NCBI GenBank assembly: GCA_903813345.2
Contig: CAIIXF020000001.1
Coordinates: 21,018,001 to 21,082,000 of the forward strand
Direction: 5' to 3'
DNA from: Owenia fusiformis
Lineage: Eukaryota
Length of the DNA stretch: 64,000 nucleotides
This document shows, in pieces, positions 1 through 62,278 of the stretch. Both the position numbers and the translations under genes were made by a program. How positions within the stretch are numbered: the stretch's first letter is position 1; the number at the start of each line of letters is the position of its first letter. Below the pieces are notes generated by a model, which did no database searches, was not told where the DNA came from, and saw nothing but the letters and a program-made list of their open reading frames with translations.

Positions 1-320
1 GATTAAGAAATTTCAACTTTTTTTGAAAAATGGCGGGAAATTTGAATATTTGAGAAATGAAATGCTCACAACTTTTTTTTCAAAAAATTTTTTTTGTTCA
101 AAAATCACTTTTTAAGTCCTGACAAATAGTAAATGAATGATAAAAAACTATTTTCAAACTTTAGACGGGGACTTTAACTGTTAAATCCACTGTAAAAACA
201 CTTTAAAACCAGTGGTTTCCCCCATTTTTCTGTGACATCATTGATGTTTGAATTTTTAGTCAATGTTAATCGAATAGTCAATGGAAGTTTAAATTATATT
301 TTCACATCCCATCAAACAAT

Positions 321-1742
321 TTAGTAATCTAAATATATATCATTTTTGACCATTTCAATTCCGTCTTTGTTATTCCCATCAAGATACACTATTTTGTTTT
401 GATCATTAATGTTCTCAGAATCAGCAGGTGTATCATATAACACATCTTCCACATAATCAGTCTCATCTGCATAATCATCCGTAGCGTTGTTATAGTCCTT
501 AGTGTTGTAATATACCACAGGTAATGTTGGACTCTTCGTTTTTACATTGATTTGTGTGTATAAATCCTTCGGGTCAGGGTCCAGGTGTAAGTTTGGTGGG
601 ACCATAGCCACACTTTGGTTCATTCCTCTATCCTTGCTGTTAGTAGGGTGGTCTCTGGGTTCTTTTGAAGAGTATTTGTGATCCTGCCTTTTGCGATTTT
701 GAATTGTCAGTAACAGTAAAAGCAGTAGAATAATTGTGATGATGGCTAATATAGCAATTCCAGTTATAAGTCCAATAACCAATGGACTGAAGACAGACTC
801 TTGGGAGAATTTGTCTGCGACATTTTGATTCACTGTCACTGTATCAGTAGTGGAGGAATTTTCCTTTGTTAGAATGCAAGATTCTGTTTCCGTGATGCAC
901 ATGTAGGCTAATTTGGAGCAACATGACATGTGTTGGAACTGGAGGTCACCTCTTATTATAGCCGCAAAGGGGCATGTTCCACAAAAGTCACTTGGACAGC
1001 TGTGATGTGAGATCAAGAGATCAAATCTTATTGCATTATAGCTATTCCAAGTTTGTGGGTATAAGCGTACAAATTGTGCATCAAATGGCTTTGTAAAGTT
1101 ATTGTAAACTGGTGTTATACTGTCATTATTCCCCAGTAGTATTTGTTCCTGTTGATTGTATATTAATTTCGTAAAATGGTCACCATCATCACTGTATTGT
1201 AACTTGTAAGAAGTGGTCCATTGAGGATGATCTGCACGTCCTTTTGTAACAATACCATATACGCACATTGCTTCCCCAAGATTAACCTGGATCCATTCAC
1301 CCACATAACCATATTTAGGTACCCAGGCAGTACGACTATTGATATTAGCATATTTTGGGGTTATCCCACTACTATGACTTGAAGATGCTGAAAACTGGTC
1401 ATCTGAGATGTTCCCCATTATAAAATAAGGTTCTGTTGTATCTGATATCCCCAACTCTGTTTCTCCCACTTCAGTATTGCTTGAGTATCCTATCCACACT
1501 TTCCTTATTGAGTTTCGGTTCATGGCATCTTTCACAGCCTGTTCAGCTTGATTGTCCTTCACTGTGATGATTGTAGCATTCATTCTTGTACACTCCATGG
1601 CAGCCTCAGACCAAGTCATAATTTCAGAGTTCACCTTTAATACAGAGTCTCTTGAGGTCATATATCCAACCGGACACACCATTCCCTCCATGTATCTAAC
1701 TGAGCATATCAGAATTAAAGTCACTTTGAATAAATATTCCAT
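321..1742 (-). CDS. Intronless type I membrane protein: signal peptide, C-type lectin-like domain interrupted by an F5/8 type C (discoidin) domain, TM helix, Tyr-rich tail
   Basis: 473-aa ORF. It shows a hydrophobic N-terminus and a CTLD N-half (CPVGY...TWSEAAMECT...VWIGY). Discoidin motifs follow (ISDDQFSASS, AWVP, EWIQVNLG, GIVTKGR, WTTSYKLQYSDDG, GNND, AQFVRLYPQTW...IRFDLL), then a CTLD C-half (C...SCCSKLAYMC). The TM segment LVIGLITGIAILAIITIILLLLLLLTI is followed by RKR. Confidence 0.88.
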   Translation of the reverse strand: MEYLFKVTLILICSVRYMEGMVCPVGYMTSRDSVLKVNSEIMTWSEAAMECTRMNATIITVKDNQAEQAVKDAMNRNSIRKVWIGYSSNTEVGETELGISDTTEPYFIMGNISDDQFSASSSHSSGITPKYANINSRTAWVPKYGYVGEWIQVNLGEAMCVYGIVTKGRADHPQWTTSYKLQYSDDGDHFTKLIYNQQEQILLGNNDSITPVYNNFTKPFDAQFVRLYPQTWNSYNAIRFDLLISHHSCPSDFCGTCPFAAIIRGDLQFQHMSCCSKLAYMCITETESCILTKENSSTTDTVTVNQNVADKFSQESVFSPLVIGLITGIAILAIITIILLLLLLLTIQNRKRQDHKYSSKEPRDHPTNSKDRGMNQSVAMVPPNLHLDPDPKDLYTQINVKTKSPTLPVVYYNTKDYNNATDDYADETDYVEDVLYDTPADSENINDQNKIVYLDGNNKDGIEMVKNDIYLDY

Positions 1743-3239
1743 ATTGTCAGTTTGTATGTATTGTCATCCCTCATCAATTATGACATTTTAACACAAGTTT
1801 TTTAATCTCAGAATTCTTATTAAGTAAAGTATTGTAGAATTATAAAGAGAGACACGGAAGAGAACCTGTCTTTTCTAGTTATTTTTTGCCTTCCTAGTTC
1901 CTGATATGAATAACATGTTTGGCTATCACGACTTTGCCTCTGGCAATATATGATTAAAGAGGCGTATCATTAAGTATGAACATCAACATTCCACTCCAGT
2001 TAATGTGAGTTATCATAACACAATGATATCATGACTGAGGATCCAGTCAATGTTTTTTTAGATACTTAGGGATGGACCATACACCATTAGGGGATATAAT
2101 GTGAACTTGTAATTATATGAATATCTTGAGACAAGAATGGCACAAAAAATTGACCCTGGTTGGAAAGAAATTCTGAAATACTACCTACTGAATAGGACAA
2201 ATAAATATACAGTTTTATAAGATCAAAAAGTTTCTCAAAAAGTGTCATGAGAGTTAAAATAATCGTCCACCCCATTTCCCTATTGAAAAAGTCATAATGG
2301 TTAGCCACCCCCCTTCTCTTTCACTTTTAATACAAAAGATTAATGTTTAAATTCTAAGAAAACAACGATGCCAGCATCAGATAGATAACTTGATGACCCG
2401 GTATGTTTCTTTCACACAAAAACATTAATGTGAAATACTAAGAAAGTTTTACTCAGATTTGGACATCAGATATGTGACAAATGATAACCTGTATCACTTT
2501 TACCTGTAAATAAATTAGCAAGTAATTAGCATCTTTTCTCTTAATTAAGACTAGAATAAAGAAGATAATAATGCAATTACAAAAGTAATTTCAGCTTTAT
2601 CTCTATTTTATAATAATTTATTGACCATTGAATATAAGTTGAATGTATGGAACCACTGGCACTTTAAACCCTCAGCCATTTATTCCCAAGTATTAATGTC
2701 CCTTCAACCAACCTGAACCCTCTCAATTAAGTTGATTAGTTCATAAGGTCATCAAAACCATTCTAAGAAGGCAATAACTTTTGGAAAAATACTTTTTGGG
2801 AAATAAAAATTATTTTGAGTGTATTTAAGAAATATTTTTTAAATTACCTTAATATTAATGAAGAAAATTGGACTGTGTTCATCTTCATTTGAGTTCATGT
2901 ATCTGTGAGTGGTTGAATTTGTAACATCAATGATCTTTTGTGTGTACAATGTATGGTTTTTTGTTGATGTATCAACATTAAGTAAAAAAAATGAAAGTCA
3001 CTTTTTCCTGAGGGAGAGGAATAGAATAATTTATATCTTTACGAACAAGTTTTCTTGTTAAGTATACCAAGCACTATATATTTAAACGTCCAATAAGTCT
3101 ATGACTTTAGCAACAACATGAAATGTTATACATGATAAAAATAGATTAAATAGAGGGATGTGAAATACTGATGTATTAAAAAGGTTGTATAGAATAGCAG
3201 GATTAAGACTAATGCTGATTATCTTTATCTATTTTGCAG

Positions 3240-6200
3240 TGCTCTGTCCAAATATCCCGTTGTACTTGATAGAAGACAATGCAAAACCAATCAACAATAC
3301 AACAAGTCTACATACAATGCAACAGACGTATTCACCAATCAAATACCTCCGACACAATGTAATCCAGCAGACAACAAGTAATACTACAGCGCCATCTTTG
3401 TTTGACCAAGTGTGGAATCAGACAACAACTGTACCATTGTTTTTGATTCTGGTCTTGTTTCCACTGATGAACTTTAAATCTCCAACATTCTTCACAAAAT
3501 TCAACTCACTAGGTATGTATGTTATGATATTTGTTCAATTTTGAATACAATTTGAAAATTTAAGTTTGGAAGATGTAGATATACTTAGGTTTTTACCCCT
3601 TCTCCAACTATTTTTAAGTTTAAGACTATGGATGTACTATATATCATATATACTTGTTTTCAAAATAATACTGTAAAAGATATTAGCAAATTAAATGTAT
3701 TGCGCCAAAGTCTTGGTTTTGTTGAAATAGTCATTTGTCATTTCCTTTCTGAACTTTCTCAGCCTTTCAACTAAATGTATGTATCAAACCATAGGGAGGG
3801 ACTAGATCAACAAAAGATGGCAGCATTAGTTTGTCCATTTATATCTTCTGTTTATATTCCTACCCAGTCTATATGCATTAAACCCTTGCTATAGTAGTAT
3901 CCTATGAAAGTGTATAGACATACATTGTAAAGTAAAAACATCTTGATTTATAAACCTCCCTGTGCTGTATTTTTTTCTCCAGATTGCTCTAAAAGCTAAG
4001 GAATATTAGAAGATTGATAATAAGTGCGTTTGTTTCAGGAACGATCTCTGTGCTTTATCTGCTCACATTTACTACAATCAAGGGAGTCCGTTGGGGCTTC
4101 CATCTGGATTTCAACCCTGCACATGTTAACACATATGTACCTGGTAAGTTAGAGCTTTATATCATATGTCTATATTAATATCAAATGGACAAATGTAGAC
4201 TATGAGGGCTGTTTCAAAAGTTATGTAATGAGGGACTCTAAGGTTGCTAAGATACAAGGGTGATACAAGTTCTAATTGCTGTCACTCAAGTACTGTTTGT
4301 GCAACATACTGTATTTTATATGACCCATGTTTCAAATTGGACTTTTTTTTTTATTGTATTCTATTCTTCGGGTTACAATAAGTATATTTTGTTACACAAC
4401 ACAACAAATCTTTTATTTAATTTGGAACCAGGTATGGCTTGTGGTCACTACTTTATTTGTTGATACTGCATGTATATTACAAGCTATTCAGCAGAAGATG
4501 TGTCTCATGCAGTATGTAATACAGATTGTATGCTATGTTAAAATTGTTGTTCGATTGATATCAAGATGGTTGGTCATCATTAAAACCAAAGATGCTATTC
4601 GACTGAAGTCGATGCCCTTTGGAAAGGTATGTAACCACCTCTGAACCTATCGGCACCAGTCAAAGGTAAACTCAACTTGATGCAACAATGAATTATTTAA
4701 GAATTTAATTTAAAAATTGGAGTTAACTGTTGCTGGACCAAGCCCAGAATGATTGATTAAACTCCTAAAACTCACTCACTACAAGGCCAAAAAACTTTGC
4801 TCAACTCAACCGGCACATCACGCTACATACCTTTATTATGAACCATGCCTCTCTACACTTCACTGCACATACCATGGTGTATAGAAAACATTAATTTTAT
4901 TCTTAAATCGCTTTGCTCAAATGAATATAAATAAAACAATTGTTTATTGGAGCTTACTTGACATTTATCTTAATTTAGCCCCAAGAATCAACAAGCCATA
5001 ATTATCCAAAATGTCAACACCTGCCATTTGTTACAGGTGCCAAACACCAACCACCAACCACTGGTTGGTGACCATAATGACATGAAAATAACATTTTAAA
5101 ATGAGCTTTATTTTGCAGATTATATACAGTATTTGAAATAATTTTATTTCAGAATTTGAAACTACATTATTTACGATGACAGGAATCCTTTCCCTGGGGC
5201 TGTTCATCCACAATGCAATCATTAGCATTATGAGGACCCACTCTAATCCTAAAGCTGTTGTATGTGTTGTGTATACCTTCCTATTTAGCATGTAGCATAC
5301 CACATTGATGATTATGTCACTCATATTCACAATACTACAGATATAGTATTAAATAATAACATGTGTGTAATAATTTCTCTCTGACAGTATCTGGAGAGTC
5401 TTTTATTATTTGTTCACATCTCACAATGGCATCCTAGTGATCCCAGCTAATCTAGTTTCTCCTGTTCTGTGTTGGGACTTAGAAATGTGATAATGAGACC
5501 TCTTTCCCATGACTTGTTTTATGAGAAGACAAATTGTATTGTGCTATTTGATTGACATGATCATTGTGGTATATTTTGGATTGGAATGAACTTTTCATCT
5601 GCTTGTGTTATAGTGCTGTTAACCAATTTATTAATATTTAATATATTGTTGTTTTTAATTTGTGTTTTGGGGGTTTAAACTAACTTAATATGGTGCTTAG
5701 CTTACTGTGGTAGTTGTAATCAATTAACATTTGCTTTTACTCTAAAACATTCAACATCAGCCATAGAGATGTTGCTCAGTGATAGAGCTGATACTATCTT
5801 GTAATTTAAGATTAAGGAGATCTGGCTTAAATCCTTAATTGAAGATCATTCCTTTAAACTTTAAATTTTAAGATCATACTCTGAGAGAAAAAACTATTCC
5901 AGTTTTCACACTGAAAGAAACACTTATGTTGCTGGACAATTCTTATTAGGACTCATTAGAAAATTAAGATGGCTTCAGACTTGGTGTCCAGTTGCACATA
6001 GTTTTACTGTTAAAAGAAAACTCTCATTTGATCTTTGTCTGTAGATTGTATGGAGAATAGGATTAGTCAGTAGTTGAATTAACCTATTAACATAGTTATT
6101 AACTAATATAACATATAACATTGTTTTTGCATTGTGTGTATCTCAACAACTAAATGCCTCTCTTATATATAGGTAAATGTTGGATAAATGGAAAATTATC

Positions 6201-44328: not shown

Positions 44329-47300
44329 CACTCATTCTACAAAAAGCGTGATTTTTGCTGTCACACACATTATCTTGTATATATCATAATAAACAGATTC
44401 CATACCTGTTATATCATGTGTTTTATGTTCTTTACCATATTAGAAATAAAAAAATACGATTGTTTCACCTGTGTTGTGTTTATTATTGTTGTCTCACGCC
44501 GAAAATTACGATAGGGGTCTTGAAAACAAGGTGTCACAAAATTGAATTTCTTAATTCATTCTTCCATTATGGTATTATGCGATGGGATCCACCCAATGTA
44601 TCACATCCACAGTAGTAAGGGGGTCTTCTGCTTTACTTTACTGCTTATTGTCCATCAGTTTTGTTTATTTTCTGATGTTTTGGGGATTTTGAATAAAGTC
44701 ACTCATTTCCGGCAATCTACGAGTCAGACTATGATATGGTACAATACTGACACGATAACTGACCCCTATGTCCTGTTTTAACACGCAAAATGATTCATAC
44801 CCGAGAGGTTAATATTTATGAATCGTGATTTTAATATATAATTCAACCAAGAGTCAACAGCATGATAAGGAATAACAAAAACAAAAACGTTAAATTTTAC
44901 TTGCCAATTTACGAGCACCCAATTCTGACAATACAGACACATACACATATCAATGTATCTAGCAAAAAGGATAGGCGACTAAATACTCAATCGTATGTAC
45001 AAACATTGCACCTCAGTCCATTTCCTTATTGGCACATGGTCCAAAAGACGGCATTGCACAATTTACGAGCCACAATTTACGGGACAACCCCTAAAATTAG
45101 ATACGAAAATTAATGATAAATCAGCATTGAATAATAGGGTACGACATCCTACTTTACGACAGTGAAAGAAAAGTGAAAGAGAAAGGTAGGCATTTTGTTT
45201 TGTGACTAATATTGTGTAATTTATCACCCCTTACCAGTGAAGCGTCGCTCTTCTCTTCAAATAAAGATAGCTTATGATACGTTTACACTTCTTATAGCAT
45301 GAATAAAGAATATATGACTGAAAAACGTGAAAAATTATTGCTTTGATATGCACACGTATGTTCCAACATCATGAATTGATGATGTCCCGTATATTGTGTC
45401 ATGTCCCGTATATTGTGTAATTACACCTATCTAAAGTTGATTGGATATACGGATCAAACTTGATATAATCGAAATGATTTTGCGAATTCAGCTTTATATA
45501 ATGTCTAAATTTATTATTTCCTCCAAAAATGATACCAACATATTCATCACAATATCACAGTACGGTACACAAAATGAGTCCCGTAAATTGGCCTTGTAAA
45601 TTGTAATTGTTGTACCTTACTTTGAACCCATTAATAACACTCAAATTATGAAGCATTGCTTCCATTTGTATATGACACATTTCCCATGCATTACTAAGTA
45701 ACTTAATTCAGTCTGAATACTATAACTAGTAACTATTTGCAGCAACAATGGCAAAGAGTAAAGCACAGAGGATGAAAGAATATAGGGAGAGAAAGAAACA
45801 AGAAATGGGAGAGGACTGGCTAAAGAAAGAACGCGAACGTGTTAAAAAGTATTATATACCCCTAGAACTACTACCAGCAAAAGATAGAAAAAGAAAACAA
45901 GCTATAAACAGGAACAATTGGCAAAACTTTAGAACCAAACGTCAAAAACCGAATGACAGCTCTACTCCACAGCCTTCTTCAAGTAGCGAGAATGAAGTTA
46001 CTTCAACAACTGGTTATTTACAGTTGCCATCATTGATGGACAGTATAGATAAATCAAGAAAGAGTAGTGGCAGGAAAAGGGTCAATCGTGCACTATCTAG
46101 GGCTCACGGAAAAATTAAACGCCTTCAGAAGACATCAGCAAAGAATAGAAAAATTATTTCTAGGTTAAGAAAAAAAGTAAATGACTTAAAACCCGCTAAT
46201 ACCCCAAGAAGCAAAACAGATAAACTTCTCAAAAAATCTGGATTTTCACCAAGCAAAGTGCCTAGAACAATTAGAAAAAAACTTATTTTCTCAGAGTGCG
46301 TCAGTGATGAGCTTAAACAATCAAACCAAAAAAAACCTATTTCTGGAAGGATCCTGAAAAAATACAAGTTGGCAAATCAGCTTAGGAACTCTGGGTATAC
46401 ATGGCGAAAATTGAGAGAGAAAAAGGCAAGAAAGATTGGCAATCAGAAAAAGTATGATGAGATAAGAAGTGATGTGATTGAATTTTTTGAAAGAGACGAT
46501 AACTCCAGAATGATGCCAGGAAAACAAGACTTCTCCAAATCCAAGGATGGAACGGTATTCATTTTCTCATAGTATTCTACTAGTAAATACATTCTGTTGT
46601 TGACATTTAACACTATATTTAAGTATCAGACTCAAAACTACATAGATATATTTTACATAGACTGGTCCATTATGCTATATAGGGGTGATAGGTTCTTAAA
46701 GCTCATATTGCAACATTTAATATGCGAGTAAACCATTTAAATTCATAAGAAACGCTTTATCCAGTTATCACCAATGTGTGATTGTTTTCATTTAACGTTA
46801 AGTCCTAGTATTTGTTTATTTGTATTAAGCACAAAGTTAATAATTTGAAAATTTTCTAGTTGTTTGAAAAAGATATATGAAATACTAGTAAATCGAAAAT
46901 TTGCAAATTATTAACTTTTTGTGTTAAGTTATTTTAATGATGTAATGCAATGTTTCAGGTTCGTCAGAAGAGGGTATTAAATGATTACTTACACAACCTC
47001 CATCTCAAGTACCTGAGTGAGTTACCAAGGCACAGAATATCCAGGGCTCTATTCTGCAGGCTGCGTCCCTCCTTCATCACTCTTGTCAATTTTTCATCAA
47101 GATCAACTTGTCTGTGTCAGAAGCATCAGAATTTTACTCTTAAACTACAGTGTCTTAAGAAATTAAATCTCTTTACCTGCATCAATCCAGATGTATTTGT
47201 TAGGGATGTTTCTTCAGACCAGTTAGCCACTTCACTTTCAAATATAGCTGAAGAAACCGTTACATTCCAAGAATGGAAAAGGGTTAAAGTAGATGATAAA

Positions 47301-49279
47301 TTGAAATGCAAAATTATCTCTACAAAAGTAGAAAGAGCAAAATTTAGTGATATAATGTTGAATGAGTATAATGTTTTTGTGGAACATGTGGATAAAATAA
47401 AAAAGCAATACTATGCTATCAAGCAGATGAAACTAAACATGTCAAGTCGCGATGTAATTATTCAAATGGATTTTGCGGAAAACTATACATGTCAAGTTCA
47501 AGAAGAGGTCCAAAGTGGTTATTGGAACCAAACGATGGTTACTCTACACCCGTGTGTTGTATACTACAAGGTGGAAGATGGTGGAGAACTTTTCCACTTG
47601 AACTACGTGTTTTTAAGTGATGTTCTTAGTCACAATGCCACAATGGTCAATTCTATCATTGAAAAATTAATACCTATTGTCAAAGAAAAGGTATCAGATG
47701 TACAGAGGGTACATTATTTCACAGATTCCCCAAGTAGCCAATATCGAAACAAAACAATTTTTTATATTGTGATGCATCATGAAATACGGTTTGGCTGTTC
47801 GGCATCTTGGCAATACTTCGAAGCAGGCCATGGCAAAGGACCATGTGATGGGATTGGCGGGGTTGCTAAACGAGATGCGGATAACGCTGTTAAACGTGGG
47901 TTTTCAATACAAGATGCTAATGAATTCCTGTGCTGGGCTATTCAAGAATCCCAGCATATTAACTATATTTTTGTCACCAAAGATGAGTATGAGATAAGTG
48001 TGTCCCAGCTTGTTGAATATAAAAATTCAAAACCCATCAATGGTACCATGCAACTCCACGGGGTTTGCACTTCGAAGTCTGGTGATGGCGTATCTCTCCA
48101 TACCAGAGATACTACATGTGTGTGTGAAGAATGTTTCACACCTAACGGTTTCCTCCCCAATCAACAGTGCAATTGGCAGGAGAAGATATCAAATTTAAAG
48201 TTTCTCAAACTGAGATTAAAACTTGGAAGCACATTAATTCAGAGATACACTATGGTGGTCTGACTTAATTTCTTTGACATGCGCATATACGATAATTTGT
48301 ACATACAATATTGTTGCATACAGAACTTGTTATTGTGTAATTAAGACTCTAGCATAAGTGCCTAATTTACGAGTCATTTTGCACTGTGAACAGTAAAAGG
48401 ACAGAACAATGCATGACGTTTATGGCTCACATTTATTTCAATGGTATTTACATAATTGCACAACAAATAATGTTGTGGTTGAAATTGTTACATACATGTT
48501 TGTCTTCTGGACAGTTGCTACCAGCATCACGACTGAGTATGCAATTTACGAGACTTTTGTTGTAATTCAGTCTTTCCTGAACTGTTGTGGGAGTTTAATT
48601 AAGAGAAATAACATTCAAAGCTTTGCTTGTGTCATCTGAAGATAAAGTACATTTATGTTGATTCCATAATCAAGTCTTATTCATTTTATACATAATACAA
48701 TATACGGGACAAAATATGGCAATCTACAGGACATTATCTTGAGAGATGTAGCAAAAAGGGCAGTCAATACTCGATAGCCATAATTTGTAGCGTAATTATG
48801 CATAGTTTGAAGTTCCTAATTTATCTACATGAATGACGAGAATGATGCATGGCATCAGTTTTATAATAAACAATACATCGTACTTTATGCTTTATTGGGG
48901 TGTAGACCCTGGGTCAGTTAACGTACATCTTGTTGAAAAATTAAGAATCGATGTAATTTTTGATACTCTTTGAACAATACATGCAACAAACTTTTATTTT
49001 CCTCTTCCAATACAATTGTTGACTATATCAATACTCATTAATGCTGTATACCTAACAAGACGATGACTCGTAAATTGGCGAAAGTGAAAATTTTGACCTG
49101 ACGTTTGTATATTTCTGCCAATTACAACTTCCGCATTTCGAAAGCGAGGCTGCCCAAACTTTGCCAGAATAACAAGTCAACTACAAACTTTAACGTAAGC
49201 ACTGAAATTAGTTCGGTTTTAGAGTTTTATTTCGAATTTTTTTTGACAGACTTTTGTCACGCTTTTTGTAGAATGAGTG
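44329..49279 (+). mobile_element. Full-length ~4.95-kb cut-and-paste DNA transposon, probably Sola-like (superfamily not certain)
   Basis: TAAA|CACTCATTCTACAAAAAGCGTGA ... TCACGCTTTTTGTAGAATGAGTG|TAAA: perfect 23-bp TIR and 4-bp TSD; encloses a two-exon transposase. Confidence 0.92.
45748..48263 (+). CDS. Spliced DDD-type transposase (~703 aa)
   Basis: Exon 45748-46554 (ACG|gtattc) joins in phase 0 to 46959-48263 (tttcag|GTT). Basic N-terminus; FFERDDNSRMMPGK..RQKRVL; CLCQKH; catalytic-type motifs MDFAENY, FTDSPSSQYRNK, GHGKGPCDGIGG; C-terminal CVCEEC. No internal stops. Confidence 0.88.
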
Positions 49280-49369
49280 TAAAATGAAAATCATGTTACA
49301 GTTACATGTAATTTATACTTTCAGTTACTATGCGATGAATGAGCAGAAGCGTGTGCAGATTCATTCACT

Positions 49370-52300
49370 ATGATGAATGGACCTCCAAGTGATAATGGGG
49401 GTGTCCAAACTAATGTTGCACCAACACTTGTGTGGCACATGGCCCAACAACAGGGCATTGATGGAATTAATGCTAATGCAAAAGTTGGAACTACAAATAT
49501 GGCAAGCTATCCCACCCCTGTATACCAACAACAGCAGCAATCTACATTTGAATATGCTACAATAGGTCCCCCAGGCTTACAGTCAGTCATGGGATATGTT
49601 GATACTAGTACTGGGAAGATGGTTGCAATGCAACAACAAAATATACAACAGCAATATACACAACCAGTTAATGCACAGCTAGTGCAAGGATTTAATACAA
49701 ACCCAACACAAGTCATAGTTGGGCAAACTAATATTGCATTACCTTCAATAGTTGGTCAAGATCAGACACAAATTGTGTCTGCTGTGCCTCAAAAAGCCTC
49801 ACCGGTGGGGTCAGTGACATTAATCTCAGGTCAAGGTCAGACTGTTCATGTACAGCCACAGCCAGCAGTAAACATAGGCAGTGTTGGTTTGGTTAGTCCA
49901 AGCGGAACTGTCCCAGCCAATTCTATGTCAGTTGTGGTCAACCAGGTAGCTGTGGCAACCCCTATACAGCCCACAACATATACCTTACAACAGCATAATA
50001 TCCCAAGTGCAAACCATAATCCTCTGCCAAATCAACATATCTTAGCTACCACAAATGGCCCTGATCTCACTGTGTCAACATCCCAAACTTTGCCATCAAT
50101 AAGTAGTATAGTCAGAGGTCACCATGTTATGCAACAGCCCCAGCAGCAACTGCCTAACTTTCCAGCTCAGTTCAGTGGTCAAGAGACAGGACCCAGTATT
50201 GTCAATGTAGCCCAGTCAGATCAATGGGGTTTTACCAATGCCTCAGTAGCCTCAGCAGTTGGTAGTCTCAGCCAGCTAACAGACGTTCCCAATGCTTCAA
50301 GGCACATGACAAACTCAATTTGTAATTCCGTATCTACAAATCAGTCTGTAATGACAATGACTCAAGTGACACACTCACCATTGACTAGCTGTGTGACTGT
50401 TGCAAGTCCAAACTCTACCCCTATAATGCAGTATACACAGCGTAGCCCTCACAATCGAGCTGGTCATGATAATCGCTTCACAAATCACGATCATATGTCA
50501 AAAAGTATGAACTTACCTAATGATAATAGATCTGAACTGGATATTAGGCTTCAAGATATTGAATCTGAAGGTCATGTGAGAAAGAAACGAAAGGGTCGCC
50601 ACAGTCCGCCAATGCAAATCAACGTGCCATTCGGTTGGAAACGGGTTGTTGAAGGGATTACCATTGTATATTACAGGTATGAAATTTTTCTAACTTTAAT
50701 TAACTGTTCTTGCTTGTATAATGTGGCTCCTTTATTGAGGAATGTGTATTAAATACACATGGAATAAATAATTTGTTGGAACCTTTTTTATGTATAAATG
50801 TTTCGTGGTGATATAACATAAAAATCACATGATGTACAATCAATGACTGACCAGCATCAGTATGTAATATTTATTTTTTGGTTTTACTAAGTTATATCGC
50901 TGAATGAACTAATGCCATCATGTAGACTACAGTAATCAGCATGTATTGTACAATATGCTTTAGACTAAAAAAGTTAGGTATGAAGGTTTTATTAATTTTG
51001 CTACGCTATTGTCAGATGATATAAGCATATTGTTCAGTGATTGTTCAGACCTTATTTAATTAACAGTTATGTGTATTAAATAGTAATTAAATATTGATTC
51101 TGCTTTGTTTCAATACTCTTAGTTGTAATTACATTTACCTGCTTAATCAGGAAAATATTACCATTGATAATCTCGTCTTTCTATCAGCCAACTTACAATA
51201 GTTTAGTATGTATAGTATTAGTAGTGAACTTCCCAGGGCTTTTTCCCAGTAGGGTGCAAAGATTAATTTTAACTATTTTAGTCGAATATTAAAGGGGTGC
51301 AATCAGATTTCAACAGGATCACATATAATTTTCAAATTTTCAACATGATGCAGTATCTAGTTGCTCTAAAGCTTGAGTTCACTAGTATTCACAAAAGCAA
51401 TTAAACAGAAAGATATCAGAGACATGAAAAACCTTCATTATTCCTTCAGTTATGAAATTGTTGATGGCAAAACAGGATAGAAATATTTAATGACAAACCA
51501 CATGAACCAGCAACATGTGGTCAAATAACCACATTTCGCCACATTTGTGTATTGTGTATTGTTATTTGATGAAATTAAACCAGCAATTACTTAGAAACTA
51601 ATTTATGAACCACAATTTTTGGATTATATTTTTTGTTTATATATTTTTGGATATTATTGTTAATTTTGAATTAATCAAATGATTGTCATCTGAGAATATC
51701 GATAATTCAATATTTTGACCTTGATCATATTTTTGTTGTACATCATCATTCTTTAGTATCAACATTTGCTATATCCTTGTTGTTTTTGTTCAGGGGCGCG
51801 CTTTGAAAAATTCATGCAGTAAATTTTACTCACATCAATAATACTAATTTTCTAAAAACTCCCAATAAATACAATAGTTCTGAATATGCCTTGATTTTTA
51901 AGGTTCGGCAAAAATAGAAAAACTGGATGTCTGCTATCTGCATTCAATTTTAAACAATTGAATTTCTGCATCTTTTAACATGCATGTACTTTCATGTTTG
52001 ATCAAAAAATATCTCCGATCTTTCTTCACATGTCAAGTTTGCTTTTGTAAGAGACATATTGGCATATTTGTTTATAATTTCAAAGATTCCTTCAGATATT
52101 TTATATAATCTCTCCTTTGTTGCAACTTTAAAAGAATTTTATATTTAAATATTAAAAAAATGTAATACTTTTTGCAGGTAAATATTTGCATCAATATCAA
52201 TAATTCCAGGACTTCTAAATTATACTCTGATGTTTAGTATCAAAGCTTTTTGAAATTATAACCAAAGAAAATTATATTTATCAGTCATCAATATGGAATG

Positions 52301-55300
52301 TTAAATGTAACAATTTCTAAGCAAGCGGATAGGAAATGAGGTATAAGTGGCTAGACAGACAGTGGTTTAGTTGTGGTATGTCTCATATCATTTTAATTCA
52401 ACTCAATTCAAGAAATTACAAAGTGGCAACTTATATATGGTTTACCCCAGTTTTAACCAAAATGTTTTAAAAAAGTTTTAACATTAAGGTTTGTTGTTAT
52501 TTGGTTTTTAAAAACATGTGCAGTAATGCAAATTATGATTGTAAAGATTTCAATATTTCAAACATATAACTTAGTACTATCTGTATGTTTGCCCCTGTTT
52601 TTTATCTATGACTATTTTAATTTTTCATGACGAATTTTCCAACAGGTTTCCGTAGATATGTATCTGGGGCATTGTAAAATCAATTTCATGAGCCCTGTAT
52701 TTCATAAAACAAACATGTTGACATTCTACCTTTAAATCTCTGACATAGATATTAAGATGTAGAAAATACTCTTGCTACTCTTGAGGTATATGTCCCATTC
52801 AAATTCCATGATGATGTGATAAATTTTATAAGTGTGCCTCTGCTTCAAAAGCGACTAAACTAACATGAGACACGTCGTATTTTTTCAGTGCCAGCAATGT
52901 ACGACTCGTCAACCTGGAGCATATAAAGCAGTATCTACAGACTGAGGGCACTTGTAAATGTGGACTAGAGTGCCCTCTTTTAGTTGAAAAAGTATTTAAT
53001 TTTGACCCTGGTGTAATATCTCGCCAGTGGACACCTGAAGATGTTAATAACATGGATGATGTCATTGATGGATTAACTAAGTTGTGCAATCACCGGAGGA
53101 AGATCATTGCCATGGCAACGTTCCAGAACAATGCAGTACCTCAAACTCTCAATGACTCACCCCCAAAAGCCAAGAGGAAAAAAGGTAGGTTTATACATGG
53201 GAAAAAAGGAGTCAGATAAAAGTTGTATTTATCCTGGTATAAAATAAGAATCCCCATTTTGCTCACGCATTCCAGTTTCCTGAAGTTCAATTCTCCATCA
53301 TGGCAGGATAACAACTTTTTTTTCAGTATTTGTGCCTTGGACCCAATGGTTACTTATTCTCAAAGTGAAATGATCTATTTTAATATTTAAATAATCATGG
53401 ACTCTTCTTCAGACAAAAATCACATAAGTTTTGCATATTGATTTATTGAAATTGTTTAAAGCATAACTACAGCTCTTACATAACCTGTACCAGTTTTTAT
53501 AAATGTCAGACATTGGATAAAAACATATTCTATTGCCTAAAAGAGAGGGATGATGTCTTTGTCATTCTTAATATAATTTTATATCAACAAAGTTGAATTT
53601 AGTCACTGTTCTTTTGGAAGAAATCATTTAGTTTTTTTTGAAGGGGTGTATTAAAAATTTAGTTTATGTGAAACCCAAAAAATATAGCATTACATGATTG
53701 AGAGATATAGGATTTGATTAAAAAAGCACTTCTATACGAGTTGTGGCCTAATTTCCCTAAATAATTATTGAATAAAACTCAAAGTTCAAGTTGACCCCTA
53801 TCATATAGGATGGAGTAATTGTATTCATACAATAAGTTATTTCTATTTCATTTGTCAATGATATAATTTTTAATAATTTATTGGTCCGGGTGTTGAATAC
53901 TTTATAAAAACATTCACACTAACTTTGAATACTATAATTTGGCACCAATTACAGGGTGGTCCAAAAAAATCATTTACACTTTTGATTGCGTAGCATTTTC
54001 TGACAATGGGAAGATTTCCCAATTGTTTTTCATTGACCTGTCGTTAAGATATGTAAGTTTTGTGTGATACAAGTTTTATTATCATATACCATTATGTTAG
54101 CACAGATCAATAGTTTGTAATGTGCTAATCCAAGCTCCCTGCGAACATTGTAATGTCCTGTCCATGTTGTTTTTAATATCCTCTAGCTCATCTATAGTTT
54201 GGTGATCGTTTGCATAGAACTTGACTTTAAAGTACCCCCACCAAAAACTTTATAGGGAATGTGTCTTGAGAATATGCATGGCCGGGTGTGTTCCATATAA
54301 TGGGAGATGAGTCTGTCTTCAGGGAAGTAATGACGGAGGTATTCAAGTCAAGCATTGGAGCAGTGCAATGTTGCCTTATCTTGCCAATAGATTATTACAG
54401 TTACAGTATCCATGTCAACCCCTCGCTTCCGCCCCAGTGCCAGTTCTTCTCATGACTTCAATATATCAGTCCATGTTCACAGGAAATGAATCTCCATTAG
54501 CATTCTCAAATTAAACCATATCACCCCAGTATCACCATTCTGACCTAACTTTCACCAGTCAACCTCTCTACATCACATGTTTGATGCTGATGCTCAGAAG
54601 GCTAAACCTGTGCCAAAAAGTGCATTTTCTATTTGTTGACGGTCATTACAAACTTAGCGCCAAAGATCTTGGATGGAGCACATTACAAACTATTGCCCCA
54701 TGCTCTCATTACGTTGGTATATAAAAATAAAACGTACACCACACAAAACTTACATGTCTGAAAGACAGGCCTATGAAAAAAATTGGGAAATTTTCCTGCT
54801 TCGTTGTCAAAAGTGTAAATGATTTTTTGGACCACCCTGTATATTTTAACAAATTTGGAAATTGTTCTTTTACTGTCATGTATTTAGAGTCCATCTTCCC
54901 CAAATCAATTTTAGAAAATCATGTCTGTAGTGAATTGGTCAAGAAAAACATAACAAAGTCAAGTATTCATTGCTTTATGGTTGAGAGAACAAGAAAAATC
55001 ATATTGTACATATAGTGGCTAATATTGAAATTGAAATAAAAGATTGAACTACTTTGTTCAAACCTCAACTTCACCTAAAATTACAGTATTTTATAATAGA
55101 ACATCTATGTATATTTATAATTTCCAGGGAAGAAAAAAGCCAGGAAATCAACTCCAGATAATATGTTGGTTTCTCAGATTCTGGCACAGAGGAGCCATTT
55201 TGAAGACAAAATAGGACCAACATCTCCAAAACATAGAAAATTATCGCAAGAGGATTTACCAAGTTCTGAGACTATAGAAAATCAACAATCCAGTCCAGGT

Positions 55301-58300
55301 TGTGCCAGTGCTGAACAGAATCATGACACCCCTGCACCTGCAATCATTGACCCAGCAGCTTATGTACGGGAGCACATTGAGAAGAGCAAGCAGTATGTGG
55401 AGAGTCAGAAACGATTAAAGGAGCAGCAGCAGCAACAAAGGAATAAAGACTCGGTCACCATGGTAACTTCTACAGGGGAACTCGGCCCAATAACTTGTCA
55501 GATACCTCCGAAGCTTCAGTTTGAGCAGCAATCACCAAGGCAACCAATAAATAGCTCATCAAAGATCCAGTCCCCCACCTTGCAAACTATTCAATCTCCA
55601 CCGCAACATATAATGTCTCCAAGACCATCAACCCCTCATACACTACCTAGCTCTCAACCAGTGTCTCCAGCCATGCCTCATCAGATGTACCAGCAACAGA
55701 GGCCCATGCCTGCCCCTGGCCCTCATCCACCTTTCATGGGTCAGTACAACAATCCCAATATGAACATGCAGCCACATGCTGCTAATCCAAATTTCAATCC
55801 ATATTTTCAACATCAACCTGATGCTAACATTCCAATGCCAATGCAAGGACATGGCTATGGACCTGGTCAGTTTAACCCAGGGTATCGTATGCCACAACAT
55901 AGTGGCCAGCAACCACACAGGATGCCACGCCATATGCATGACATGATGATGCAACAGATGCACACAGGTCAACCTGGCCCTCCACACATGATGCCAAAAC
56001 ACACTCCCCCACCTATAGACCCTGCCATGCCTCCATATATGTTTGACCCTTCATACAATGTGCCAAAACAAAAACCGAAAAGAAGTAGAAAAAAGAAATC
56101 AAATAGCGTGTTGGATAGGAATTCACCGTGTCCAAATGTTGATGTACGGCAGATGCCAGATGAGTCAAAAACAGTTCCTTTGGTACCACTCTCAGTTGTG
56201 ACATCCACGATGGCACAGAGTCACGCACCTACACCTTCCTCAGCATCATTCCTTGAGAACCCAACAGGATTTATGGCCCAGCAGACTGCATTGGTGAACA
56301 GCTCTATGACTATCATGCCTCAGCCAAGCCCACATGGTGCACTGCCTGATCAAGATAGTAAACTTGAGATAGATACCATCAACTCAAATGAGGATGTCGA
56401 TGCCCAATCAAAAAATGATGAAGCGAAAACAGTCAGTTCAGATTCACCTGAGAAAGTAATTGCTGACACCCAGTCAGACAAAATTGGTGTCTCACAACTA
56501 GACAATGATGATAAAAGTCTCAAGGTGTCTCATACAAATACAACAAATGTACCAACATTAACAGTGTCCACAACCATGTGTACTGTATCAATGTCTGTGC
56601 CATTAACCACGTCTGCTGCCACATCAGCTCTGTCTATAACCACACATCTACTTAGCCCAGGATCTGAATCAACTCTCTCAGCTACAAGCCCAGGCATGTT
56701 GAGTCCAGCTTCTAAGATACTTAGTCCAGCATCCACTGCAGCCACAGTTGTAACTATGACAACAATGACTGTGACAGCATCAACATCATCCACCCACTCG
56801 CCATTATCTAGTCAACACACCACTGTCACAACTGATGTCCACACAACAGGAACCTCTATTGCTATGGTTACTGGTTCAGAGGCAACTCCAATGGTTTCAC
56901 ACCCTAATATGTCTCAAGATATGGTACATGCTATGGGAAATGCCCATCCTGGTAATACTATGATGCCCAGACATCCAGGCATGCATGGGCCATATATGGG
57001 TATGCCAAATAACCCTTCTGGTGGTCCTATGGCTCCCAATCACCCTCAAGGATTTATGGGTCCTGCCCACCCACATGGACACATGGGAACTCCCCCAGGG
57101 TTTCCTATGATGCCACAACCCCCAAGCCCTCCAAAGAAGGCTGGGGCCAAGCGTAAAAGGTCTAGATCTCAACAGCAGCCATCACAACAACAGTTCCAGC
57201 AACAACAAATGATGATGCAACAGCAACAAATGATGTATGGAGATAACCTGATGCATCCAAGGATGCAAATGATGCAGCAAGGATTCCCACCACCAAATGG
57301 TCCACCCCAACAGCAAATGGTCCCAGGGCCTGACGGACAGATGAGACCAAGGGGATTCCAAGCCAGTCATATGTTGAGTGCAGCTGCCAAGGCGCAAGGT
57401 GGGCCTCCACCAATGATTGGGCCTCAGAATAGACATCCCAGACAGAGAATGATGGGACCAAATCATGCAATGGTTGATCCGATGGCAGGTCACCCTGTCA
57501 ACTACCAACAGATGAGAATGATGCAGGGTCAGGGTATGAGGATGCCCCCACATATGAGTCCACCAGGCCAAATGCAAATGCATCCAAACATGTCACCACA
57601 CATGCAGAATTTCCATGGACCTCCCCAAGGGTTTCCCAATGAGCAAATGATGCATGCTTCAAGACATGGGGCTCCATACCCCCAACAGATGATGCAACAA
57701 GGGATGAGACCCATGCAAGGTCAGAAATCTCATCTACCAGATGCTCAACAAGGTATGCATGTGGGTCAAAATCAAGGCCATAATCCTATTCAAATGGTGC
57801 AAAATATGATCACTGGACTCGATGGCCAGACTATGATGGATCACAACAGTATCATTGGATCACCTTCATCTGTACGCCGTGGTCGTTCACTTTCTGTAAG
57901 TTCAACATGTAGTAACAGATCAGATAGGTCAGGGAGCAGTAGGCTTCATTGCACCACCCCATCTGGATCCATAGACAGGGTTAACACACCATCAACACCA
58001 GGGGGAGGAAGACATACGCCTGTATATGCTGAAGACAAATTCCTTGGAGATATGGATTCAAAATTAACACATGTAGTAACGCAAGAATCAAAACAATATG
58101 ATGAGAGTAATCAGCAACCTTTAAAAGGATCAGAACACTCAGAAAAACAAGCTGATAATTCTGAATCTGTGAATTCTGAGAAGACAGTTGAGTCCACTCT
58201 TGCTGAAGATAAAAGTACTTTACATGAGAAAACCAATTCTCAGACACAAAGCAATAATTCAAATGCAACTCCAGTTAACTCAGCTGATAACACCATTGGA

Positions 58301-61300
58301 ACAGATGTTAAGGAAGCTACATCTACTGTTGCTCTACCAAATGCTGCTACACAAATTGATCACTCCAGTGTTAAACCAAAGAAGAAATCAAACCGAAGCA
58401 AGAAGTCCAGCACACCAACCATAGCAAGTATGCTCCAAGCAGCAGTATTACCTCCTAATCAACATGTTCCGTTCAATCAACAAAACGTTCAGCAGCCTCC
58501 GCAACAAATGATGCGCATGCCTCAGCAGCAGAACATGATGATGGGGCAACAGCATATGATGCAGCAGAGGTTCCCAATGCAACAGCAGCCACAGTCCATA
58601 CAAGAACAGGTCAGGTATCCTCCTCCACACATAATGGTTCAGACCCAGCAGTTGATCCCTCAGCAGGGTATAATAATGAACAACCAACAGCATGTTGGGA
58701 ACCAACAACAGTTCATGATTCAACAGAATGTGAACCATATGCAGCCCCAAGGCCAATTCCCTCCCATGCAGGAGCAGCATATGCAGCAACAGTTGATGCA
58801 GAATCCTAGAATGCCTCAGTGTTTGCCTGGTCAGCAACCAACAAGTCCGAAACAACAAGGAGTTCACATTCAGCAACAACATGTCCATGTTCAACACTTT
58901 CCACATCCTCAGCCAAGTCTCCAACCAGCCAGCATAGATGGCACTGGGGTTAATACACAACAAGTTGTAGCAGAAGATCCACAGGAGACAGATACCTCAT
59001 CTAAACCTGAACAAACACTTCCTCCAAGTCAGGATGTTCAACCAAATGATTCAGAGACTCCCAAGCCAGAAATAAGCATACCTGATGATGTTCCCCCAAA
59101 TGAACATGCTGATGTCAATAAACTACAAGATAAGGAGAATGTGGCAGTTCCATTTGAAAAGGAAAATGAAAGTGCCAGTCCTGATGAACCTAAGACTGGG
59201 GTTAATGTGAGTGATGTTGATAAGAGTAATGTTGAGTCCAGCGATCATGGTAATATCCAAGAAGCAAAGAATGATCCAACCGAGAGCTCAGAAGTTGAAA
59301 TTCCAGCTACCACATGTTTATCCATGACACTTGTTTCACCTACTAAGTCTGTAGATGTCCTGGGTTGCCAACCAGTAGAGACCAAGTCAATGGTTATGGC
59401 TGTGGAGGCTCCTGTAGCTGTAGCCACATTCCCAACTGTCTCCGCTGACAACATGATTCTTCACCAGCCTGTGAATATATTCTCCACAAATAACATGCCT
59501 CAGCAGATAAACATGCTGACAGGTCAAAATGTAAATGTGGAGCTGGTGCAGCAGTTACAACAGCAGATCATCCAACAGACCCAGCAATTGGTTGGCCAGT
59601 TGAACAACCCAGCCATAGTGGCACAGTTAAACCCTGAGCTACTACAGCAAGCAGGTGTACACATTCCTCTCGAGCAGCTTCCACAGACTGTTGGCAATCT
59701 TAGTATCCAAGAACAGGCAAACCTAATCCAGATGAATCAAGCCTTGATAAATCAGATCAGTCAGAACCTCCAGGGTCAATTGAACATGAACATACTTCAG
59801 CAAAATGGACTCCAGCAGAGAAGTTCCAGTGTTATGGTTCCTAGTACAATGATTCAAACATCTACTGTGTCCTTGGCCAATCCAGCTTCAGAGCAACCTG
59901 CTTTAGATTCAGTAGTAGCAATACAACCAAACACAACTGTTCCTATTCCGCCTGATATGTTAGCCCAACAAGCCACAGTAACACTTCCTTTAGAACAAGT
60001 GTCAGGTGTTGCAGTTACATCAACAGAAATTGTACCCTCGCCATCTAAAACTGAACTTGTCCAAGAGGCACCTGAAGTTGCATCTGAATTTCACAAAGAT
60101 ATACAAGAGGAGGAGTCAGAAGAGCAACAACAATCTGAGGAGCCTATTGGTGATGACCACATTGGAGAACTAGCTGATGAACCAAATGAGGAAGAAATTA
60201 CAGATGAGATTCCTCATGATAATGCTCCTGTTGAGACACCTAAAAGTATGAATGATTCATTGGTTGATCAGGAAGATCATGTCAAACCTGAACCTGTTGA
60301 AGATATTTCTGTTCACTCCAATGAGCCTGAAGAAAATGTTCAGGAAGATCAGATTGACAAACAGTCAACTGCAGGTGATTTTGTTGAGCAAACATCTGAG
60401 GAGGTAATTGGTGAAGAGCCACTTAGTGAACTGCCAGAGGAAATAAATAATACAAATGAGGGAGTATTTGAACAAGAAACTGCTGAGGAAGAAACCTTCC
60501 TTGTTGAAAATGAAGAACATCAAGAAAAAACCTTAGATTTACCCAAACCCATTGACAACATGTCAGTTAATAGTACTAAACAAAATGATCCTAAAGACCA
60601 AATCAATGAAGCTGATCATTCCATACAACAAAGTGCCGTCACAGATGGGTTTATAGAATTAGGCAAATCCCTCCATGATAGAATAACAGAAGGAATACCA
60701 ATTGCCATGGGAGCATGCAGTGATGACTTTCCTGAAGACCTCAGTATTAAGAAAGTGGTGGATGTTGCTTCCAGATCTGAATTTACTCCCAATACTTCAT
60801 TTGGATCTGCAGTTAGTTCATGTGCTGATGATGACTTTCATGGATCTGAAAATGTGGAAGGTCTTTCTATCGAAACTAGGGATCCTCCTGGTATGCAGCT
60901 AGAGGCTCTTGTTCCTACAAACATTTCACCTGCTGGATCTCAAAAATCAATGGTGTCATTAACTGGTATGATTGATGCTGACACAGCTATCAATGCAGCT
61001 AGAGCACTTGGTAACACATCTACTGAAGATATTGAAAATCTCTCAGAGGAACTTGAAACAACAAATAACAGTTCATCGCATAATAGTGTTGAAAGTGCAG
61101 TATGTGATGGCCACATTTCTGATACTGAAAATCCACCTAGTCAGAGCAACAGCACCCTCTTAACCATGACCAACCATGTGTCCCCAGATGCAGCGACCAA
61201 TGAGAGTATTGTGCTCAATACAACTGCAAGGTCTATGCATCTTAGTGGAAGTACAGACTCAGGGACACACAATCATGATTCTGACCACAGTGGCTCTGAG

Positions 61301-62278
61301 TCAACTGATACGTCATCCAGCGCAGATATCAACCTGAACTCCAGCAGCAGTCCAGTCTGTAATGAACTGTGTGGTAGCAGAGAAGTGAAGAAGTCACATG
61401 ATAGTGGCCTGGCTGAAGACTTTGATGGTGAGTACTCTATGTAATGGGGTTTGTGCAGGTCTTATAGTCACCATCTTGTATGTTCCACACATCATTTCTT
61501 TCATTGGGGGGGGGGTTGCCTTAACATCCATGTGATTTGTGACAGGTGGTGGCCCTGAAATCATCCTGGCACACACTTTAATGGAAAGCTTTGTAATTTT
61601 TAAGGATGTTTCTTGGTTTGAAAATCAAAAAGTGATTGGTTTTTGGGCAATGCTGTGTATATTTGAAGGTGTTCATTTTTGATTTTCCATCTAAAATTAT
61701 GTCTTGTCAACTCATTTTCAGTCAAACTGCTTCTAAGTTAACTGATTATATTTTGTGTGTCCTGGATTAATTTTAAGTCAGTCATGTCTAATCTGTTGAG
61801 CCAATCTAAACCGTGTCATAGATTCATGAACGCTGAATTATTTCTGTGACTTCATTGTAGCTAATGAAGAAATGACAGAAATTGAATTGAATCAAGAAAA
61901 TTAATATTGAAAACTTGTATGCTGAATTTGCATTGTAAATGCAATATAAATCATAAAATACCAATTGATGTTTAGTTTAAAGTGAAATATGTTTAAAAAT
62001 TTTAATTGATTGATATGTTCTTATTGATGCATAAAGTATTAAATGTCAGCATACACCAATGATTATATGAAATATTATAAAAATTAACATGCATATATTT
62101 GCATATATTTCTAGATGACAATCCAGACTCTCCATTTGAACCTGACCCTGATTACCCAAGAACATTCAACATTGGGGACCTTGTGTGGGGGCAGATAAGG
62201 GGATTCCCCTCATGGCCAGGAAAACTTGTACACGAGGTGGATGTGAAGAACAATAAAGAAACACCAGAGGATGGAAAG
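49370..62278 (+). CDS. MBD5: MBD5/MBD6-like (Drosophila sba-like) chromatin protein with MBD and PWWP domains; continues beyond the window
   Basis: Exons 49370-50676, 52889-53184, 55128-61427 and 62115-62278 are phase-compatible. MBD: VPFGWKR...[27 protein letters not shown]...[43 protein letters not shown]. It also has the LSAAAKAQ motif recalled from vertebrate MBD5. Confidence 0.92.
53952..54839 (-). mobile_element. Tc1/mariner-superfamily deletion derivative (888 bp) with decayed rosa/DD41D-like transposase remnant
   Basis: TA|CAGGGTGGTCCAAAAAAATCATTTACACTTTTGA ... TCAAAAGTGTAAATGATTTTTTGGACCACCCTG|TA. The minus strand reads WQDKATLH...[13 protein letters not shown]...[20 protein letters not shown] with stops and frameshifts. 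Confidence 0.85.

Follow-up and report, generated by a model that had tools for sequence, protein, structure and literature searches.

The stretch of DNA analyzed here (the window) comprises 64,000 nucleotides of the genome of Owenia fusiformis, numbered from its first letter as position 1. This AT-rich sequence (GC content about 0.31-0.47) carries near its edge, on the minus strand, a single open reading frame (ORF) at 321..1742, which runs without an internal stop from MEYLF... to ...IYLDY and encodes a protein of 473 residues, termed P0001, whose residue numbers are used throughout. From the letters alone, the original prediction had described this protein as a C-type lectin domain (CTLD) split by an inserted discoidin domain, within an intronless receptor with a Tyr-bearing tail. 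The analysis presented below makes it highly probable that P0001 is a true domain-in-domain CTLD, i.e., that the Cys-rich piece downstream of the discoidin domain closes the lectin fold that was opened upstream of it.

Order of parts in P0001

The Pfam profile Lectin_C (PF00059) matched residues 42-101 with 27.6 bits (cut-off 22.6), covering only profile positions 3-63 of 107, and the score was 31.0 bits when the first 80 ectodomain residues (21-100) were searched in isolation. This match ended just past the WIGY motif (W83), and was followed by a full discoidin domain (F5_F8_type_C, PF00754; residues 116-238, profile positions 1-121 of 127, 95.5 bits with a cut-off of 28.2) and then by the C...SCCSKLAYMC segment, which is the order of parts that had been read from the letters. 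The discoidin part matched PDB profiles with E values down to 3.4e-32, and the domain of P0001 showed the beta-barrel fold. The N-terminal Cys present in aligned discoidin proteins was without a counterpart in 9 of 9 family proteins, and the C-terminal one (Cys249) was kept; the loss of the former would fit a CTLD that now holds the discoidin termini together. Further downstream, the top-scoring hydrophobic 19-mers of the protein began at residues 325-329. The coordinates of all these parts are collected in Table 1.

A motif scan of the whole protein found none of EPN, QPD, WND, EPS or EPD, in agreement with the earlier statement that EPN/QPD and WND are absent. In the E-INS-i alignment described in the next section, the EPN column fell on Cys249-Pro250-Ser251 and the WND column on Phe-Gln-His. 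Since both motifs are absent, a canonical Ca2+-dependent sugar site is not expected in this CTLD, and P0001 is not a C-type lectin in the strict sense (EPN or QPD plus WND at Ca2+ site II). The term intronless was found to hold for the coding sequence only, which is a continuous ORF, colinear with the contigs of one sequencing run (X2) on 182-924, 895-1298, 1423-1625 and 1596-1728.

Table 1. Parts of the P0001 gene, with positions in the window
Feature	Position	Strand	Remarks
Complete coding sequence	321..1742	minus	473 codons plus stop (stop 321-323); colinear contigs of run X2
Putative signal peptide, residues 1-20	1683..1742	minus	Hydrophobic N-terminus read from the sequence, kept in paralogues
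CTLD first half, residues 21-88	1479..1682	minus	beta0/beta1, alpha1, alpha2, beta2 with WIGY; Cys23 at C0, Cys51 at C1
Linker from beta2 to the discoidin domain, residues 89-105	1428..1478	minus	Mean pairwise identity 0.25; pLDDT 49-68
Inserted F5/8 type C (discoidin) domain, residues 106-244	1011..1427	minus	
Cys-rich piece, putative last third of the CTLD (beta3-beta5), residues 245-290	873..1010	minus	Cys257 at C2, Cys274 at C3, Cys282 at C4
Ser/Thr-rich stalk, residues 291-315, length varying in the family	798..872	minus	Paralogue comparison
Transmembrane helix, residues 316-347	702..797	minus	Hydropathy maxima 325-329; conserved in paralogues
Cytoplasmic tail, residues 348-473	324..701	minus	11 Tyr; conserved Tyr at 395, 411, 430, 436, 470

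Relation of the Cys-rich piece to the CTLD

A hidden Markov model (HMM) was built from 59 full canonical CTLDs taken out of nine multi-domain proteins. This HMM matched the first half in all eight full-architecture members of the family, with E values from 3.6e-12 (P0001) to 1.7e-5, and in each of the eight it gave a second, colinear match on the piece that follows the discoidin domain (from profile positions 108-123 to 142-143). When the same HMM was run on the paralogue P0022, which is without the Cys-rich piece, no second match was observed. The profile Cys landed on Cys257, Cys274 and Cys282 of P0001. The pieces alone (42-46 residues) scored 4.8-8.9 bits, and composition-matched shuffles reached the real score in 0, 0, 0, 0, 0, 1, 2 and 2 of 2000 cases for the eight members. 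Furthermore, CTLD profile positions about 86-110, which make up the long-loop region, had no counterpart in P0001; the HMM and MAFFT alignments are thus consistent with the earlier view that it is the loop with the Ca2+/sugar site that is missing. When the family was compared with a CTLD alignment by hhalign, the first half was matched with a probability of 96-97% (72% in a separate run with another alignment), and the family piece gave P=0.003 across 14 columns, from C3 to C4.

With nine canonical domains and two small lectins, three modes of MAFFT paired C0 with Cys23, C1 with Cys51, WIGL with WIGY, C3 with Cys274 and C4 with Cys282, and the E-INS-i mode alone additionally paired C2 with Cys257. 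An identical C3/C4 placement was obtained with 47 unrelated CTLDs translated from metagenome loci, which had been gathered with degenerate DNA patterns, so that 58 canonical CTLDs in all were aligned to the piece. The C3-C4 spacing in P0001 is 8, equal to the consensus, and the C2-C3 spacing is 17 versus 15. By position, the four core Cys C1-C4 of the fold correspond to Cys51, Cys257, Cys274 and Cys282, which all eight members share; the full set of ten ectodomain Cys is likewise invariant among them. The piece was also the most conserved part of the family, with a mean pairwise identity of 0.69 (0.57 in the discoidin domain, 0.54 in the first half, 0.25 in the linker).

When AlphaFold2 was run on the 8-sequence family alignment, the mean predicted local distance difference test score (pLDDT) was 34.7, and that of the piece about 33. 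The alignment was then deepened to contain the eight family rows, P0022, 47 metagenome CTLD first halves (cut 14 residues past WIGL) and 15 bacterial discoidin domains; in this alignment WIG was aligned in 47 of 47 rows, each CTLD row contributed about 7 stray residues, and only the eight family rows covered the piece. In other designs MAFFT misplaced rows, i.e., whole discoidin proteins spilled into CTLD columns, whole CTLD rows had about 40 residues each pushed into discoidin columns, and C-half-only rows, as well as N-half rows cut at or before WIGL, were misaligned. On the deepened alignment the best of five models reached a mean pLDDT of 83.9 and a predicted template modelling score of 0.73, and the pLDDT by ten-residue block was 76-84 in the first half, 49-68 in the linker, 87-97 in the discoidin domain and 71-80 in the piece. 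Strands (E) and helices (H) were predicted at model positions E7-22, H24-33, E36-38, H44-56 and E61-63 in the first half, and at E236-243, E246-253 and E258-271 in the piece, after the barrel. This is the element order of a canonical CTLD (beta0/1, alpha1, beta1', alpha2, beta2 ... beta3, beta4, beta5), the topology of which, with its termini together and its long loop in the upper lobe, is described together with the canonical strand order in the available text of PMC7618208. An AlphaFold prediction had been suggested as a check on whether the two halves fold together, and as regards the order of the elements the best model did reproduce the CTLD. In addition, the pLDDT of the piece rose without any new alignment rows for it, which suggests that the model places the piece in a defined context.

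The family members that were identified came from the same species. A word-index search found three of them, with 42-44% identity over 88-100% of the query, all from Owenia fusiformis, and a search for paralogues, which the original prediction had also proposed, gave seven with an identical order of parts and 42-55% identity. A word-index search for short proteins with residues 21-100 yielded no candidate, and one with nine canonical CTLD stretches yielded just nine small proteins. The full-architecture proteins thus number eight, every one from Owenia fusiformis. Because the seven paralogues keep the order of parts, the feature cannot be put down to a chance ORF. When 1.84 billion representatives were searched with a profile, 5469 matches at E <=0.001 were obtained, and among the 150 matches listed P0001, P0003, P0004, P0008, P0009, P0010 and P0012 were full-length, P0022 was without the CTLD parts, and all other rows matched in the discoidin columns only; a nested protein scoring below about 143 bits would fall outside these matches, so that absence elsewhere is not implied. 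The accession numbers suggest tandem groups (CAH1782117/18/19; CAH1788428/29; CAH1794661 and CAH1794664), and the family copies are spread over at least five contigs. P0022 (349 residues, Owenia fusiformis), which differs from P0002 by three in its accession number and lies on a contig of equal length, keeps the signal peptide, the discoidin domain, the transmembrane segment and the tail, and both CTLD halves are absent together, which may be a real co-loss or an effect of the gene model. The precomputed Pfam labels of P0002, P0003 and P0004 held PF00754 only, and in public records these proteins are named 'F5/8 type C domain-containing' or 'uncharacterized'. As these three labels illustrate, proteins of this kind escape standard annotation.

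Each of the two domains is a textbook module, and their occurrence next to each other in one protein is common. The unusual point is the topology, in which one folded binding domain lies within the ligand loop of another. Compared with canonical CTLDs such as those of DC-SIGN and mannose-binding protein, P0001 is alike in its WIGL-type beta2, in the C1-C4 positions with their near-canonical spacing and in the predicted element order, whereas it differs in having a 139-residue discoidin domain in place of the long-loop region, in being without EPN/QPD/WND and the C0' partner, and in four extra conserved Cys. Compact CTLDs without the long loop (Link modules, intimin/invasin domains) reportedly exist in the classification of Zelensky and Gready, and the two halves of P0001 would form a core of this kind, but here the loop would be not deleted but occupied by a folded domain.

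Tandem proteins in which CTLDs are combined with discoidin or F-type lectin domains (invertebrate mannose-receptor-like proteins, Drosophila Furrowed, teleost CTLD-FTLD) resemble P0001 in having both families in one protein, and such co-occurrence is described in the available text of PMC5712786. Among the proteins examined, nine have canonical CTLDs followed or preceded by discoidin domains in a row; Owenia contributes one of the nine, and has a mannose-receptor-like protein in P0063. In these nine no CTLD is interrupted and the domains adjoin one another, whereas those of P0001 are nested. The first half of a CTLD, a discoidin domain and the end of a CTLD within 60 residues of each other were found in 0 of the 143 non-family proteins examined, and no paper on the nested CTLD-discoidin form was found in the literature that was searched, which did not extend to subscription journals. 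Chordate clusters with Lectin_C and F5/8C families in the Atlas (score 0.89) are a lead only. One tunicate protein, P0124 of Styela clava (974 residues), has a weak match to the CTLD start (residues 95-138, 13.9 bits), which is followed by three discoidin domains; two WSC-like domains were recognized by eye, and the last 40 residues resemble a CTLD end (CLAIV...DC...VICE) at a score of -0.9 bits, which is not significant. P0124 might represent another case of a CTLD with an insert, here a far larger one, or its gene model might have been joined wrongly.

Proposed explanation and its alternatives

In the proposed explanation the chain would run through the lower-lobe elements of the CTLD and beta2, out to the discoidin domain, and back via beta3-beta4-beta5. 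Judging from the known folds, the CTLD termini would lie together at the membrane side and the long loop would leave and re-enter at the far side, and the discoidin termini would lie together, opposite the binding spikes of that domain. Given this geometry of the termini, the CTLD would act as a rigid pedestal carrying at its distal tip the binding loops of the discoidin domain, and the latter, rather than the CTLD, would be the ligand-binding head. The conserved Tyr of the tail (YxN, YxxP, YxxI/V), once phosphorylated, might be docking sites for SH2 adaptors, or they might be sorting signals. Taken as a whole, i.e., a nested CTLD, a discoidin binding head and a tail that is a docking or sorting platform, this explanation seems reasonably probable to us. 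P0001 is, in this view, a membrane receptor of type I, and in the searches described above its family was found only in the annelid Owenia fusiformis.

The tail has 126 residues. The contexts LYTQI, YYNT, DYVED, LYDTP and IYLDY named in the original prediction are all present, whereas its count of about nine Tyr has to be raised to 11. Tyr395 (DLY[TS]Q[IV]) was found in 6 of 8 tails, Tyr411 (YxN) in 5, Tyr430 in 7, Tyr436 (LY[HD]TP) in 5 and Tyr470 in all 8. P0008 (609 residues, partial, Owenia fusiformis) contains three copies of the tail module DLY[ST]QVDIKTK ... YH[TS].ADVD, and this points to module duplication as a way in which the tail evolves. A tail of this kind might belong to an SH2-type signalling receptor or to an immune-type receptor. 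Against such a function it must be said that none of the 11 contexts, inspected by eye, fits the immunoreceptor tyrosine-based activation motif (ITAM; YxxL/I x6-12 YxxL/I) or inhibition motif (ITIM; (I/V/L/S)xYxx(I/V/L)). YxN is a Grb2-type context, and YxxP a Crk/Abl-type one.

The nested architecture would be equally kept if the role of the protein were adhesion or endocytic clearance, with the tail Tyr being sorting signals of the YxxPhi type or having no signalling role. The YTQ[IV] context fits the Y-x-x-hydrophobic sorting pattern, the absence of ITAM and ITIM from the tail is in line with such a role, the closest-fold discoidin receptors among the structural matches listed (CASPR2, neuropilin and DDR) include adhesion and co-receptor proteins, and a discoidin-transmembrane protein of Branchiostoma, P0110, has Tyr in its tail and no CTLD. 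However, five conserved Tyr positions in differing contexts are more than one sorting signal would need, the module that holds Tyr is triplicated in P0008, and YxN and YxxP are classic SH2 contexts, so that we regard adhesion or clearance as possible but rather unlikely. P0110 itself (Branchiostoma hybrid, 783 residues) consists of two copies of a discoidin domain, a transmembrane segment and a Tyr tail (RIYNNA, NVLYAHA, NNLYA), and resembles a pair of receptor genes merged in a single gene model.

In comparison with DCBLD1/2, the neuropilins, DDR1/2 and CASPR2, P0001 is without CUB, LCCL, MAM and kinase domains (Pfam, E up to 1), and in contrast to the discoidin domains of type I receptors, its own is nested in a CTLD instead of standing in tandem, and misses the usual N-terminal Cys. 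In the available text of PMC6029619 the discoidin receptors DCBLD1/2 figure as scaffolds for CRKL that act through YxxP. Where receptors of the DCBLD type have several YxxP, P0001 has one that is conserved. P0001 is not a member of the DCBLD/neuropilin-like scaffold receptors, although it may work like them.

The nested CTLD on which the proposed explanation is built has itself to be weighed, and several observations speak against it. In context, the second HMM matches were weak (-0.4 to 4.7 bits), the hhalign probability for the piece was just 3-10%, the separate hhalign run gave no match to the piece besides that to the first half, and the 51-residue piece alone matched nothing in Pfam and nothing in the PDB sequence search. 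The piece holds Cys249, 254, 257, 274, 275, 282 and 289, of which 249, 254, 275 and 289, which are conserved like Cys160 of the discoidin domain, have no canonical role (nor has Cys160), and Cys23 at C0 is without its usual C0' partner. The eight members are relatives, hence their agreement does not amount to eight independent tests. Among the AlphaFold2 models, the remaining four had a mean pLDDT of 67.6-73.3, and in the structure searches the best 50 matches each from VIA-align (48,161 chains) and Foldseek/BFVD were all of discoidin type, which filled these places and left no superposition on a CTLD, so that the lack of a CTLD among them carries no information; a structure search of the Atlas likewise gave discoidin families only. 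The packing of the two CTLD halves and the disulfides Cys51-Cys282 and Cys257-Cys274 are putative.

These observations could also mean that the halves do not make one fold, the N-terminal part being a decayed CTLD remnant and the Cys-rich piece an unrelated disulfide-rich stalk module, whose likeness to the CTLD end is due to chance or Cys composition. The failure of the piece alone to match in Pfam and PDB, its low hhalign probability and its four Cys beyond the canonical three would all fit such a module. Nevertheless, shuffles that preserve the Cys matched the real score in only 0-2 of 2000 cases, the match is colinear with a C3-C4 spacing of exactly 8, and the conserved C1 (Cys51) would be left without a partner. 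Furthermore, a lone CTLD first half is not known to fold, the pLDDT of the piece increased from about 33 to 71-80 when only other parts had gained alignment depth, and P0022 is without both CTLD halves at once. An unrelated module is, on this evidence, improbable. The interpretation given in the original prediction is upheld in part: its central point, the domain-in-domain insertion, is supported by the colinear HMM match in 8 of 8 members, the shuffles, hhalign, MAFFT, the conservation and the strand order of the AlphaFold2 model, and the signalling or immune-type role of the tail is putative.

Whether the gene is expressed was judged from sequencing runs, at least 12 of which contain part of it, none of them on record as RNA. 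The contigs of run X2 cover 182-1728 at a word depth of 357-836 and leave 1838-2672 uncovered, and in the same run the neighbouring gene is spliced (junction 3510>4037). This junction and the uncovered stretch indicate that X2 behaves as an RNA assembly. Two results weigh on the other side. In the raw RNA runs X13-X15 the depth over the P0001 gene was 0-2, versus 33-82 over the exons of the neighbour, so that the RNA support is thin, and the X2 contigs differ from the window in 25 codons (16 non-synonymous, 9 synonymous) among the 28 of 57 differences that were listed. These include Ser251Cys, Tyr417Phe and Tyr424Asp, and leave the ten conserved Cys untouched. The X2 contigs may derive from an allele that has diverged or from a close copy of the gene; so many non-synonymous changes would be unusual between alleles, and may reflect fast evolution or a near-identical copy. 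That the ORF is a pseudogene, a functionless retro-copy or an assembly artefact is scarcely credible. The single exon, the nearly nil coverage in X13-X15 and the 16 to 9 ratio of non-synonymous to synonymous differences would suit it, but the frame of 473 codons is intact, no domain and none of the ten ectodomain Cys has been lost in eight paralogues, and the X2 coverage comes from a run that behaves as RNA.

If confirmed, the nested CTLD of P0001 would be a natural case of loop grafting on a CTLD scaffold. Owenia is an early-branching annelid, and it would gain a candidate lineage-specific family of surface receptors for immunity or cell recognition. In a wider and quite tentative reading, the long loop of the CTLD might be a docking port for whole foreign binding domains: its own site would have been swapped for a discoidin head, the receptor would then have multiplied into a diversifying, home-grown recognition family, and a tunicate may have come to a similar arrangement on its own (P0124). 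In the available text of PMC7618208 the long loop is treated as the evolvable element of the CTLD fold.

Other features of the window

Just downstream of the P0001 gene, window positions 1-180 were covered very deeply in every run, with a word depth of 110,560 in X2 and a depth of 56-78 on each strand in the raw RNA runs. At 177/178 many reads pass into unlike sequence, with low agreement, and the segment looks like a short, highly repeated element. On the other side of the gene, the plus-strand neighbour has two exons, at 3174-3510 and 4037-4143, which are well covered in X13-X15 and were seen in X2 also, and which are joined across a GT..AG intron (3511-4036, 526 bases skipped); a minor second junction, 3514>4041, was found in two runs.

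A Pfam search of four other long ORFs of the window gave no match. Two of these, of 279 (Lys/Arg-rich) and 440 residues, adjoin each other at 45733-48263, and may belong to a mobile element or to a gene confined to this lineage. The other two, at 49343-50752 (469 residues) and 55121-61444 (2107 residues), are rich in Gln, Pro and Met and lie in a region with a GC content of 0.40-0.47 as opposed to about 0.34; both probably represent large exons that encode a nuclear protein of low complexity.

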